Shown here: positions 10,072 to 57,777 of the stretch, piece by piece
Position numbering within the stretch: the stretch's first letter is position 1
Layout: each line of letters starts with the position of its first letter
From: a virus
Lineage: Duplodnaviria > Caudoviricetes
IMG/VR virus record: IMGVR_UViG_3300029305_002366
Span: 1-64,000 of that record
DNA length: 64,000 bases
Reading direction: 5' to 3' (one strand)
Made by a program: the position numbers and the translations under genes
Notes under the pieces: model-generated
Databases searched by the model: none
What the model saw: the letters and a program-made list of their open reading frames with translations, nothing else
Told to the model about the DNA's origin: nothing

Positions 10072-10500
10072 ATGAATATAAAGGTAAAGTATTTTGATAA
10101 AGAAATAGACAAAATTGAACACATGGATAAGGGAGACTGGGTTGACCTTAGAGCCGCAGAGACAGTTGAACTTAAAGCAGGTGAATTTAAACTGATTCCA
10201 CTTGGAGTAGGAATGATATTACCGAATGGCTACGAAGCTAATATTGTTCCGAGGTCAAGTACATTTAAAAACTATGGAATTATTCAAACTAACTGCTTTG
10301 CAGTTATAGATAATAGTTATTCAGGTGACAATGATGAATGGAAATACCCTGTATATGCCACAAGAGATATCACAATAAACAAGAACGACCGTATATGTCA
10401 GTTCCGAATTAATAAAATACAGCCACGATTTAATATAGAAGAAGTTGAACATTTGAACGATACAAGCCGAAATGGATTTGGTAGTACAGGAGTAAAGTAA
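10072..10500 (+). CDS. dut: trimeric dUTPase
   Basis: All five motifs: GDWVDL, PRSS, VIDNSYSG, DRICQ, RNGFGSTG. Confidence 0.93.
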   Translation: MNIKVKYFDKEIDKIEHMDKGDWVDLRAAETVELKAGEFKLIPLGVGMILPNGYEANIVPRSSTFKNYGIIQTNCFAVIDNSYSGDNDEWKYPVYATRDITINKNDRICQFRINKIQPRFNIEEVEHLNDTSRNGFGSTGVK

Positions 10501-11519
10501 TGAGCAACAAGTTTAAGCCTAATGATATGATAGGCAACTGGCTATTATTAAAGGAAGTTGAACGTCCAAAAGAAATGAAAACAAAAGGGGTCTATTGGCA
10601 ATGTCAATGCCAATGTGAAAACAAAACCATATCTGTGATTTTTGAAGGAAGATTATCAAGTGGTAGAACAAAATCCTGCGGTTGTAGTAGAATTAAAGAT
10701 TTAACAAACCAACTGATAGGCAAATTAATTCCTCAATACTATTACAAAAAAGATGGTGAAACTTATTGGCACTGTAACTGTCAGTGTGGAAATACTTGTG
10801 AAGTTCCTGTTAGCAAACTTACAGGAAAGGTAAAAAAATTATCTTGTGGTTGTTTACGTCTTGAAAGAATAAAAGAAAGTTGCCATAAAACAAATTCATT
10901 TCGGTATGAAAACAACATTGCTTATGGCACAATGTCCAATGGAATAGAATTTATAGTCGATGCAGAAGATGTGCCAAAAATACAAAATATTTGTTGGTAT
11001 CTTAACAAACAGGGCTATGTTGTTTCTGGCGATAAAAGACTTAATCGTATAATTACAGGATGCGAAAACGATAAATTCGTAGTAGACCACTGGAATCGAA
11101 ATCCATTGGATAACAGAAAATCAAATCTGAGAATCGTAACACAGCATTGTAATGTTTTAAATTCATCAAAAAGAAACGATAACACATCTGGAATGACAGG
11201 AGTATGGTTCGATAAGAAAAACAATAAATGGTGTGCCGAAATCAAACTAAATGATAAAAAATATTTTATAGGTAGATATGGTTCTAAAATAGAAGCAATT
11301 CAAAAAAGATTTGAATATGAATGTTTATTGTTTGATATCTATTCACCTTATTACCAAAAGAATGATACTTTTATTTGTGAAGCCTGTGGTTATAAACTTA
11401 CACTTTCTCGTAAAACATTAAAGCCAATTAAAACAGAAGTCAAAGAGATTTCCTTTGAGGATTTAAAGAATATAAAGTCTGAGCGTAGTGACGGAGCATT
11501 AGGTTCTTCTCTAAAGTAA
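10500..11519 (+). CDS. HNH-AP2 endonuclease with dUTPase-like C-terminal tail
   Basis: CQCQC/SCGC repeats, VVDHWNRNPLDNRKSNLR, NTSGMTGV; ends SERSDGALGSSLK. Confidence 0.85.
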   Translation: MSNKFKPNDMIGNWLLLKEVERPKEMKTKGVYWQCQCQCENKTISVIFEGRLSSGRTKSCGCSRIKDLTNQLIGKLIPQYYYKKDGETYWHCNCQCGNTCEVPVSKLTGKVKKLSCGCLRLERIKESCHKTNSFRYENNIAYGTMSNGIEFIVDAEDVPKIQNICWYLNKQGYVVSGDKRLNRIITGCENDKFVVDHWNRNPLDNRKSNLRIVTQHCNVLNSSKRNDNTSGMTGVWFDKKNNKWCAEIKLNDKKYFIGRYGSKIEAIQKRFEYECLLFDIYSPYYQKNDTFICEACGYKLTLSRKTLKPIKTEVKEISFEDLKNIKSERSDGALGSSLK

Positions 11520-11611: not shown

Positions 11612-11653
11612 AAACACGAAGCAATATGCCTATAATTATTATGAGGTGATAGT

Positions 11654-11764
11654 ATGGATAAGAAAGCATGGATGGAAATGATAGCAAAGATTCTTTTAAT
11701 AAGAAACGTAATCACAAAAGAAGAATATAAAAATGTATCTAAAGAGATAAGAGGATTAAGGTAG
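11654..11764 (+). CDS. 36-aa SHOCT-like protein, candidate recombination directionality factor (not in ORF track)
   Basis: GAGGTGA RBS; MDKKAWMEMIAKILLIRNVITKEEYKNVSKEIRGLR; convergent with and 3 bp from the integrase. Confidence 0.6.
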   Translation: MDKKAWMEMIAKILLIRNVITKEEYKNVSKEIRGLR

Positions 11765-11767
11765 TAT

Positions 11768-13516
11768 TTAGTTACTACCCTTTTCTATTGCTATCGAAAT
11801 ATAATATACATATGTTTGTATTGATTTTTCTCTACCTAATACTCTAATAATATTTGTACGTAGTTCTGGTGTCATTTTACAGAAGATGTGTCCAGAACCA
11901 CGTTTGAAATTGTATTTAACATTATCTGTTTTTAAGATAATGTTAATCTCTAACGTCTTATCCTCAATTGCCGTAACCTCAATTCTTTCCAGATACATAC
12001 CAACAATAGAATCAACTTCGTCCTGAGACAATCTTTTATTATCTCTTTTAATATCATCTATCGCCTGTTTAATTTTCACAAGTCTATGTTCAATATCTCT
12101 ACTTGAACTTTGATTATCTTCAAGACTTTGCTGTTTAGTAATGATATCTTCAAGAGAAGATGACAACTTGTCGTTTCGCTTTTTGAAATCTTCTTTATTG
12201 ATATCACCATTCATATATAAATCTAAAAGCATTTCTTTCTTATGCTCTATATTATTTCTTTCAGTAGCCAATCTATCAATAGATTCTTGCGAATTGTTTT
12301 CTTCTATAATCTTCTTACATATCTTTATAAATTCAACAGTATACTCATCTATACTATCAAGTAATCGTGTAAAACAATCGGACAGAATATCATAAATTTC
12401 AGATTCATAAATTGCAAAAGTAGGACAAGTCTTTGCTCCATGTGTTTTCTTTTCACGGCAAATAAACTGATAGATATTATTTCCTTTGTGTAATCTATGG
12501 CTATATGACGTTCTCCAAAATGGAGCATTACAATGCGTACAAAATATTTTACCTGACAATACAGAAGTAGTTTTATTTCCCTTGCATTGATTCTTTACGT
12601 CCTCGCTTCTTTGTTTATATATTTGATTGGCACGATTCCATAAATCTTCATCCACAATAGCAGGTACAATATCTCCTGTTTCATCTTTGTACATTACCCA
12701 TTCTTTTTCTGGCAAAAATATCTGTTCTTTTGTACGATAGTCAGCTATCTTAACTTTATTGCCACAATAATAACCTTTGTACTTTGGGTTCGTAATAATA
12801 CCGCATATGGTTGTATGACTTATTTCCTTACCACTTCTTGACCTATACCCTTTATCGTACAACTGTCTTTGTATTGCACGTATGGCAAACATACCACTTG
12901 CATATTGTTCAAAAATAAATCTCACCATTTCAGCTTCACGCTCATTGATAATAAGTTTGCCATTCAATTTTTCATAACCATATATCCTACTATTACCCAT
13001 AACTGTACCATTTTTAATAGCTTGCTTGTGTCCAAACTTAATACGCTCTGACATTTTACGAACTTCATCTTGTGCGATACTTGCCATTATGGTAAGTCGA
13101 AACTCGGCATCACTATCAACAGTACAAATGTTATCGTTCTGAAAGAATACTCCTATTCCATTCCTGAGTAATTCCCTTGTATATGTTAAACTATCAATTG
13201 TATTACGTGCGAAACGTGATACCTCTTTAGTGAGTATTAAATCAAACTTACCATTCTTGCCATCTTCAATCATTTGCAAGAAAGCCTTACGGTTAGCTGT
13301 CGATTCACCACGCACCCTATCTACATACCCTTTCACATAAGTCCAGTTTGTATGCTCAGATATCATCTTTTCAAAATGCGCTATTTGATGTTCAACAGAA
13401 CTGTCCTGTTCTTCTTTGAGTGTGGATACACGTACATAATAAGTTACTTTGATATTTAAGCCGAAGATTGTTTTATGGTTTGTTTTCATATAGTTTACTG
13501 TGCTATAAATATCCAT
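11768..13516 (-). CDS. large serine recombinase (integrase)
   Basis: YVRVST catalytic Ser, TKEVSRFARN, recombinase domain, CTHC...C...C Zn ribbon, coiled coil. Confidence 0.95.
   Translation of the reverse strand: MDIYSTVNYMKTNHKTIFGLNIKVTYYVRVSTLKEEQDSSVEHQIAHFEKMISEHTNWTYVKGYVDRVRGESTANRKAFLQMIEDGKNGKFDLILTKEVSRFARNTIDSLTYTRELLRNGIGVFFQNDNICTVDSDAEFRLTIMASIAQDEVRKMSERIKFGHKQAIKNGTVMGNSRIYGYEKLNGKLIINEREAEMVRFIFEQYASGMFAIRAIQRQLYDKGYRSRSGKEISHTTICGIITNPKYKGYYCGNKVKIADYRTKEQIFLPEKEWVMYKDETGDIVPAIVDEDLWNRANQIYKQRSEDVKNQCKGNKTTSVLSGKIFCTHCNAPFWRTSYSHRLHKGNNIYQFICREKKTHGAKTCPTFAIYESEIYDILSDCFTRLLDSIDEYTVEFIKICKKIIEENNSQESIDRLATERNNIEHKKEMLLDLYMNGDINKEDFKKRNDKLSSSLEDIITKQQSLEDNQSSSRDIEHRLVKIKQAIDDIKRDNKRLSQDEVDSIVGMYLERIEVTAIEDKTLEINIILKTDNVKYNFKRGSGHIFCKMTPELRTNIIRVLGREKSIQTYVYYISIAIEKGSN
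11858..11903. other. candidate attP inside the integrase 3' end
   Basis: ACGTAGTTCTGGTGTCATTTT-ACAG-AAGATGTGTCCAGAACCACGT: 16 of 21 arm positions complementary around central CA (11880-11881). Confidence 0.55.
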
Positions 13517-34339: not shown

Positions 34340-34379
34340 AAAAAAATAGGGGCAAGCCAATCGTAATTAACTTGCCCCT
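34340..34379 (-). terminator. rho-independent terminator
   Basis: AGGGGCAAG/CTTGCCCCT stem plus T7. Confidence 0.8.
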
Positions 34380-34384
34380 TTCTT

Positions 34385-34702
34385 TTATTCATCGTCAACG
34401 TCTTTATCGACTGACTTGCTTTTTGGTTTAGGTACGCTCTTAGGAGTGCCTTTTGCTATAATAGCCTTGATATCTGTTGTTATAGCTTCAAGCAGATTTA
34501 ACTCAGTATCAGCTTTGATATCAAGATGCTCAAACATTTCTGTAGCTTCTTTGGGATTTATGATGCCCTCTCTGTACTCTGAAAGAATCTGGTGAATCTG
34601 ATAATGTTCTTCCGAACAGGTGAATCTTTTCCAACCATTTGTTTTATTGCAGTTCAGACAAGCATCGTATTCCTTGCCACAAATCCAACAGTTATTCTTC
34701 AA
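34385..34702 (-). CDS. Cys-rich hypothetical protein
   Basis: CWICG...CLNC...CSEEH. Confidence 0.65.
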   Translation of the reverse strand: MKNNCWICGKEYDACLNCNKTNGWKRFTCSEEHYQIHQILSEYREGIINPKEATEMFEHLDIKADTELNLLEAITTDIKAIIAKGTPKSVPKPKSKSVDKDVDDE

Positions 34703-52659: not shown

Positions 52660-52778
52660 GGGAGATTGTACGTATAAAAAGATAAGAGGAACACAAGTTC
52701 TATCTTATGTTCCTCATCACTTTAAGAGTTGCTTGTAACTTATGCGGTTGTACTTTCTCCATATAGCCCCAGTTTTTT
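52660..52778 (+). ncRNA. candidate structured small RNA
   Basis: Starts at the expected +1; GGAGA/TCTCC, CGTATAA/TTATGCG and GAGGAACA/TGTTCCTC stems with G-U pairs on the + strand. Confidence 0.5.
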
Positions 52779-57280: not shown

Positions 57281-57777
57281 ATCATCACCCCCATTAAAAC
57301 ATACAAGAATAATCGCACTACATAATTATATTGAGCCGCTATAAGAATATGTGGCATCCATCTTCTCATAAATACCAAACGTTTCCTGACCCATCGTCTG
57401 TAACGTTTGTATCTTTTGAACCGCCCTTCAAAGTTTCCATTAAGGGCAAATGATTTTAACATACTGCCAGTATCTTCCGTATTATATAACTCATCTGTCA
57501 TTCTCATATAATATGCTTCTCTGAGAAACAACATTAATATTAATTTATCTCTATTAACAAAATAGTTTGTAAATAGAAATATTTCTTTTATACGAAACTT
57601 AAAACAAATCGAAGGTGTTTTGCTCCATGCTTTTTGTAAAGCCTTGCAATGATGCTTATGGGTTTCAAGGTCATGTTTGTGTTCTGCGAACCTTTTGGCA
57701 ATCGAAACTGATTCCCCTATATACCTTTTGCCATTAATTCGATTTATTATTTGATAAACACCAACTATTTCAAACAC
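57202..57777 (-). CDS. GIY-YIG nuclease with hydrophobic C-terminus
   Basis: GVY...YIG, RFAEH, REAYY, LYN. Confidence 0.8.
   Translation of the reverse strand: MFEIVGVYQIINRINGKRYIGESVSIAKRFAEHKHDLETHKHHCKALQKAWSKTPSICFKFRIKEIFLFTNYFVNRDKLILMLFLREAYYMRMTDELYNTEDTGSMLKSFALNGNFEGRFKRYKRYRRWVRKRLVFMRRWMPHILIAAQYNYVVRLFLYVLMGVMIWAICYYFLPTSVWEWVASNFINTSS

Follow-up and report, generated by a model that had tools for sequence, protein, structure and literature searches.

A probable attachment site inside the gene of a phage large serine integrase, with a small acid-soluble spore protein gene as its likely target

Elements that interrupt sporulation genes have been described in spore-forming bacteria, and those closest to the case considered here are SPbeta (SprA/SprB, in spsM), skin (in sigK) and gin (in gerE) (PMC4191935, PMC5595907, PMC5499854, PMC5025042). 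We analyzed the first 64,000 nucleotides, here called the window, of IMG/VR virus record IMGVR_UViG_3300029305_002366, a linear record of 111,317 bp with a CheckV completeness of 100 that belongs to a tailed phage (Caudoviricetes) of about 34% G+C. A 46-bp imperfect inverted repeat within the 3' end of its large serine integrase gene (int) is probably the attachment site (attP) of the phage's own integrase, with an alpha/beta-type small acid-soluble spore protein (SASP) gene as the target. Judged by sequence comparison, the finding is solid for the integrase family, and the reading for this particular phage is well supported but indirect.

Like SPbeta, skin and gin, the elements described here pair a large serine integrase with a small protein that is its candidate partner, and in the relatives of this phage the bacterial attachment site (attB) lies inside a sporulation-related coding region that the element splits. 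Unlike in those systems, the target is an alpha/beta SASP gene, the hosts are Oscillospiraceae and both orientations of insertion occur. A further difference is that attP lies inside the integrase open reading frame (ORF), so that both proteins, integrase and SASP, change their tails. For the SASP-inserting elements, which are known here from sequence alone, we found no evidence of developmentally timed excision. Nucleotide and protein searches of GenBank phages revealed no sequence kinship of this phage to SPbeta; the near-identity search gave no match to this phage, and the best protein match there was 43% identical, in unannotated faecal records.

In the integration-dependent immunity systems of mycobacteriophages and Gordonia phages, attP lies inside the repressor ORF, the recombinase is a tyrosine integrase, and the part removed is a degradation tag with a regulatory role (PMC3694055). 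The present locus resembles these systems in having attP within a phage ORF whose product changes its C-terminus, the free and integrated forms encoding different proteins. It differs in that the recombinase is a serine integrase and the ORF holding attP is int itself, the role of the int tail being putative. We rejected membership of this group, the recombinase being serine-type and attP lying in int rather than in a repressor. SSV1-type archaeal tyrosine integrases also have the attachment site inside the integrase gene (PMC8371274). Their integration splits that gene into two parts. Here, by contrast, a serine recombinase is involved and the exchange is confined to the final 36 codons, so that the catalytic and DNA-binding domains stay whole.

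Serine-integrase elements that split sporulation genes are already known, and what appears to be new is the SASP target and the location of attP inside int. In the literature we found no paper linking SASP genes to attB and none placing the attP of a serine integrase inside int. The main text of a survey of large serine recombinases (PMC10083194) leaves SASP unmentioned, and its supplementary tables may list such targets.

The gene and the features of its putative attachment site are as follows.

11768 to 13516, minus strand: large serine integrase, 582 amino acids (Pfam domains and structural model)
11858 to 11903, no strand: putative attP, a 46-bp imperfect inverted repeat in the int ORF, codons R539 to T554 (repeat search; break point of homologues)
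11880 to 11881, no strand: putative crossover dinucleotide, CA on the plus strand and TG on the integrase strand (repeat centre)
11863 to 11869, no strand: half-site heptamer GTTCTGG, the outer motif of the tail-side arm (conserved in relatives)
11892 to 11898, no strand: half-site heptamer CCAGAAC, the complement of GTTCTGG, encoding Ser-Gly on the integrase strand (conserved in relatives)
11768 to 11878, minus strand: exchangeable integrase tail, K547 to N582 plus the stop codon (the homologous tail is lost on integration in relatives)

The integrase contains Resolvase (PF00239, 2.5e-27), Recombinase (PF07508, 4.1e-17) and Zn_ribbon_recom (PF13408, 2.1e-07) domains, each above the Pfam cut-off. 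The zinc-ribbon domain carries a long coiled-coil insertion, modelled as helices at residues 371-406, 410-435 and 441-491 in a block with mostly 69-90 predicted local distance difference test (pLDDT) scores. The protein has the domain order of a large serine recombinase, catalytic, recombinase and zinc-ribbon, together with the coiled-coil insertion. A repeat search of the window bore out the earlier note's description of the 46-bp repeat centred on CA: its arms (11858-11878 and 11883-11903) are 21 nucleotides (nt) each, 16 of the 21 positions are paired (76%), and 4 nt, ACAG, lie between them. Between the heptamers lie 22 nt, of which the putative crossover dinucleotide forms the 11th and 12th, and the centre falls within the codon for Cys546, 36 codons ahead of the integrase end. 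The site has the form of a serine-integrase attP: an imperfect inverted repeat of about 50 bp with a 2-bp centre, close to int. Variant strains (runs X6 and X7) differ at 11858 and 11889 within the repeat, the change at 11889 being His543Arg, as in P0001. Also inside int, 13 bp past the att repeat, is another inverted repeat, whose 12-bp arms (11916-11927 and 11935-11946) match perfectly and stand 7 nt apart.

The case for attP comes from related integrases. We examined 149 related int loci (80 from genomes, 11 viral and 58 from metagenomes, in collections that overlap), most of them 49-54% identical to the window integrase and belonging to Ruminococcus or further members of the Oscillospiraceae. 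Beyond the integrase module, almost no genes are common to the phage and the 80 genome loci, and the elements at these loci are therefore not phages related to it. The loci were classified by the reading frame past the ..SG.I.. motif. In 119 of the 149 the frame runs on as the C-terminus of an alpha/beta SASP (..KKMI[DE]xY..) and stops within 8-15 codons. In six it runs on as the antisense of the SASP 5' part (..LTI and a stop, or ..LTICPPIEPA), and another six retain a long phage-type tail (..KM.PEQQ..). The remaining loci comprise seven cut by a contig end, seven with other sequence and four without the C-terminal part.

Intact SASPs in at least 30 related genomes end ..GS[IV]GGQMVKKMI[DE]xY[EK].., identical to the tails of the integrated integrases, in which the SASP end comes directly after ..SGHISK. 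The C-terminal variants of the SASPs are also the same as those found on integrases (..KMQ, ..KTGMKS and ..ENSMK). The antisense tail, that of SASP ..AGSIGGQMV, was read in the DNA of four loci (L006, L071, L100 and L105).

In Ruminococcus flavefaciens ATCC 19208 (G001:C4) both ends of an insertion can be seen. One contig carries both cores on one strand, that of the integrase side at 201,328 and that of the SASP 5' part at 260,082, a distance of 58,754 bp, and host genes come after the integrase. The split SASP (PF00269, 70 bits) reads ..GSIGGNMV and continues into a 33-residue PEQQ-type tail similar to the one on the window integrase. Chimeras of this kind are also present in G002, G003, G004, G073 and G146, the split SASP genes of all six genomes scoring 70-108 bits with PF00269. 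A matched pair of loci gives the break point: the free form L098, on a 126-kb viral contig, and the integrated form L099 differ at just 38 of the first 1,667 int bases, after which all similarity ends, a few bases beyond the midpoint of a repeat whose 14-bp arms match perfectly. Beyond that point L098 has a phage tail and L099 has ..MIDAYKMQ. At the level of the integrase family, therefore, three claims of the earlier note held up: free and integrated homologues lose similarity at the repeat centre, as expected of an attP near the end of the int frame; the integrase C-terminus is exchanged when the element integrates, as seen in the 119 SASP tails and six antisense tails; and intact SASP ends match the tails of integrated integrases, which identifies attB with the alpha/beta SASP (ssp) gene. 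The note had held that integrated homologues keeping the full TPELRT tail would speak against it; the integrated homologues were checked for that tail, and the reading stands.

In the R. flavefaciens family a SASP match was found in 107 of 151 genomes, and 105 of these 107 have exactly one SASP gene, so insertion there takes out the sole copy. The family-typical chimera occurs in three of the 151 genomes (G001, G073 and G146), and among the 107 sampled species genomes that have a SASP gene at least 3-4 have it split. The sequences of attB and of the prophage junctions (attL and attR) are compatible with precise rebuilding of the SASP gene on excision. In G089 (L189, G089:C26:13500-15200) the break in a SASP gene comes slightly later, a few bases downstream and past ..QMVKKM, and the gene is fused to another tail, ..NTVRTSSFQRDN.., which suggests a second kind of element using the SASP gene.

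The geometry of the site is the same in every class. On the integrase strand GTTCNGG is followed by 10 nt, the core dinucleotide, another 10 nt and, in free forms, CCNGAAC; the attL sites have the same spacing to CC[ACG]GAAC. All six free-type relatives conserve the heptamers GTTCTGG and CCAGAAC, the 22-nt spacing and the central dinucleotide. GTTCNGG stands 17 nt ahead of the first SASP codon in 119 of 119 forward junctions (59 distinct 32-mers), with an exact match in 104, one mismatch in 14 and two in one. Taking the first motif in the region, the core is AA in 87 of 105 forward loci with an exact heptamer, and in the other 18 an earlier chance motif was probably taken. The core is TT in all six reverse loci. 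It is TG in four loci of the window phage's clade; the clade records are about 70% identical in int, with L090, L091 and L101 being one sequence and L102 distinct. The window and the three other clade records keep GTTCTGG, 22 nt, CCAGAAC and the TG core even though the codons between them differ. Orientation follows the core on the integrase strand, AA giving parallel and TT antiparallel insertion, as expected of serine integrases.

For the family, the comparison shows the following mechanism. The integrase cuts at the central dinucleotide and joins attP to an attB at the V-K-K-M codons, in the 3' region of the one alpha/beta SASP gene of the hosts, which are Clostridia of the gut and rumen. 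This splits the SASP gene, and the integrase loses its last ~35 phage-encoded residues. On parallel insertion the integrase gains the last 8-15 residues of the SASP, the phage tail becoming the new C-terminus of the truncated SASP; on antiparallel insertion it gains a few antisense codons and a stop. In either case the exchangeable integrase tail would stay at the far end of the prophage.

The window phage has TG as the core on its integrase strand, so CA is needed on the SASP strand, which implies antiparallel insertion and a codon for Gln (or His) where other alleles encode the first Lys. We searched 401 Oscillospirales genomes for a CA-core SASP pattern and obtained seven matches, against one for a control pattern. 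Four of the seven are SASP genes ending ..GGRMVQKMINIAKNS (the MVQKM-type allele, also given as ..GSVGGRMVQKMINIAKNS). This phage would thus insert in antiparallel orientation, choosing a SASP allele that has CAR, for Gln, instead of the Lys codon (..MVQKM..). The prophage integrase would then stop one codon past the crossover (~545 amino acids) or read briefly into antisense SASP, and a plus-strand frame of the phage would continue the reading frame of the SASP 5' part. The feature concerned is the following.

11880 to 12026, plus strand: frame antisense to int, containing the listed ORF 11886 to 12026 (ORF list; putative fusion to SASP)

An in-frame join of the integrase to the SASP had also been proposed. 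This part holds for the relatives, with 119 such loci, and is less likely for this phage, whose core predicts antiparallel insertion and an integrase that would more probably be cut short. Proteins of a sister clade bear on the prediction. P0024 (64% identical) ends ..ILQKMINSYKMQ, as expected of parallel insertion at a CA core, and P0019 (66%) ends ..SSGCIF, as predicted for antiparallel insertion at a TG core if the preceding host codon ends in T or A. P0025 and P0028, in the 61-66% clade, end ..LTI.

A number of observations weigh against this reading. In scans of genome, viral and metagenome sequences neither this phage nor its clade at 80% identity or above was found in integrated form, and relatives above 71% identity yielded no junction in the same scans. 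All 13 members of the 90% protein cluster are 582 amino acids long, and clusters at ~80% identity hold 582-residue members alone, plus two fragments. Among the Logan contigs listed for four runs the intact site alone was seen, with no loose end at its centre, and since Logan contigs drop rare variants this result says nothing about lysogens. A TG-core junction pattern had no matches in IMG/VR, where a TT-core control was itself low-yield (15 matches, one a true junction and the other 14 one unrelated repeated gene). None of the five genomes in the family of the MVQKM-SASP genomes has a related integrase, and the four MVQKM-SASP genomes, which are at best possible hosts, are G+C-rich at the SASP gene. 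P0019 and P0024 are known from protein only, and P0019 may stop at a contig end. The seven relatives with other sequence after the motif indicate that the integrase family is sometimes located at non-SASP sequences. Lastly, the repeat on its own is unremarkable and could be reached by chance: a scan for at least 16 of 21 paired positions with a spacer of 0-6 gave eight matches at four places in the window, against an expectation of 2.0 +/- 1.6 per window in 50 first-order Markov simulations. It is the comparison with related integrases that raises the repeat above chance. The other places with inverted repeats of like quality (16-17 of 21) are 34340-34387, 52677-52724 and 57543-57584.

The most serious alternative is that the repeat is a true attP and that the TG-core clade targets a gene other than SASP. 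Besides the lack of junction DNA above 71% identity, this is favored by the TG core being unlike the AA and TT of the documented SASP insertions, and by the four loci L020, L041, L064 and L117 at non-SASP sequences. The sister clade nevertheless points to SASP, through the SASP-like tail of P0024 after a Gln codon and the antisense-SASP tails of P0025 and P0028, and the window's plus strand has nine bases in common with real MVQKM SASP genes from the core onward. We regard a non-SASP target as unlikely. As to the four loci themselves, L020 (R. albus AR67), L041, L064 and L117 have integrases joined at the usual AA position to no recognizable SASP tail, and these junctions may be secondary or pseudo-attB sites. 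R. albus AR67 also retains an intact SASP gene (L082).

A second alternative, to which we give still less credence, is that the site is a relic, in a lytic or episomal phage that no longer integrates, the repeat persisting as part of the int frame. The exclusive occurrence of free forms in the cluster members and contigs examined would fit this view, but metagenome assemblies favor the abundant free form. The integrase is intact, and neither ParB_N nor a ParA-type AAA_31 domain was found in the 111-kb record. The heptamers, spacing and core are invariant in the clade at ~70% identity while the intervening codons change, which also argues against a relic. A chance or protein-driven palindrome, with the real attP lying in an intergenic region near int, is very improbable in spite of the roughly two repeats of such quality expected per random window, because the break point of the homologues is exact, the geometry is kept in every forward junction and the DNA similarity between the window and L091 continues through the site to end just beyond it, at 11824.

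Integration at the SASP gene, then, remains our preferred account of the repeat, and it would mean that free and integrated phage encode integrases with different tails. The free-type tails are conserved well past the eight codons needed by the att arm (..R..G[RK].....Y.[VI].I..), and this conservation suggests selection on the tail as protein. In an AlphaFold model of the integrase (60-row alignment, mean pLDDT 77.5) the linker at residues 542-552 is disordered, with pLDDT below 50, as it is also for residues 572-582. The two tail strands (553-560 and 563-570), which form a hairpin at 553-570, reach only pLDDT 58-65; this is too weak to judge their packing on the C-terminal sheet and counts against the reading as a whole.

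The change of tail may, speculatively, alter integrase activity or stability. A working switch, in which the ~35-residue C-terminal hairpin of the free form favors or licenses integration and the shortened or SASP-tailed prophage form differs in stability or directionality, is a tentative idea that we consider rather doubtful. If it were true, the strong forespore promoter of the split SASP gene would read into the phage tail in parallel insertions, giving a chimeric SASP, or antisense into int in antiparallel ones, as predicted here. The germ-line cell, not the mother cell, would then be where prophage control and the protection of spore DNA are tied to sporulation.

It is the forespore that expresses the alpha/beta SASP gene, which is not known to be active in the mother cell. 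Excision in the forespore would cure the spore, in contrast to the model for skin and SPbeta, which places excision in the mother cell. Among the sporulation genes that serine-integrase elements are known to split, the one alpha/beta SASP gene of Oscillospiraceae is a new and widespread target, and the family provides a natural case of a serine integrase that rewrites its own C-terminus through recombination. Since one integrase scaffold occurs with four natural cores (AA, TT, CA and TG) and in both orientations, it could be useful for orthogonal integrase tools.

The gene next to int may encode the partner of the integrase.

11654 to 11764, plus strand: candidate recombination directionality factor, 36 amino acids (convergent with int, ending 3 bp from the int stop codon)

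This small gene is kept beside int in L091 and L102 despite divergence of the DNA. The ORF has a Pfam match to SHOCT_2 below threshold and nothing in PHROGs. Complex prediction for the 36-residue protein with Int 310-582 scored 0.73, against 0.02 for the best of three controls; the score mark used is reached by 58 of 80 solved complexes and two of 110 mismatched pairs, counts that are approximate for the alignment of our own used here. At least 93% of the contacts recur between runs, and the partner has a pLDDT of 85 or more. The predicted interface (Int 382-407 and 481-508) is the coiled coil proximal to the zinc ribbon (DBD2), and directionality factors have been reported to bind the zinc-ribbon/coiled-coil junction of the integrase (PMC12286644). 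A solved complex of the SPbeta integrase with its directionality factor exists, so likeness to it may add to the score. The prediction lends support to the earlier note's proposal, and the protein is a credible directionality factor, very small for a candidate of this kind. In the window clade integration would move its gene to the prophage end opposite int.

In L098/L099 (5682-5825), L105 (3765-3878) and L060 (9734-9892), int is immediately preceded on its own strand by a small ORF of 38-52 amino acids with a ribosome-binding site, and these ORFs have a W...L..[GN].I[ST].[ED][EQ]Y-like motif in common. In the window clade their counterpart is downstream of int and convergent with it; the generality of this adjacency rests on six examples. 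Contigs of run X7 have loose ends at 11650, 11714 and 11746 (region 11650-11746), so the small-ORF region differs between strains.

The record encodes the terminase, portal, endolysin and dUTPase of a tailed phage, and no SASP gene of the phage's own was found in it. As the earlier note had said, phage genes flank int on both sides, with 3 bp between int and the small ORF; the ORF list and domain matches place the dUTPase and an HNH endonuclease on one side and the endolysin, portal and terminase on the other. The window is syntenic with L091 (108.6 kb) on either side of int, so the free arrangement is real and not an artefact of assembly. Logan contigs of three of four further runs likewise bridge the site. 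Between the dUTPase and the small ORF lies an HNH_3/AP2-type endonuclease gene (10500-11519), which looks like an inserted homing endonuclease because in the syntenic L091 the small ORF directly adjoins the dUTPase.

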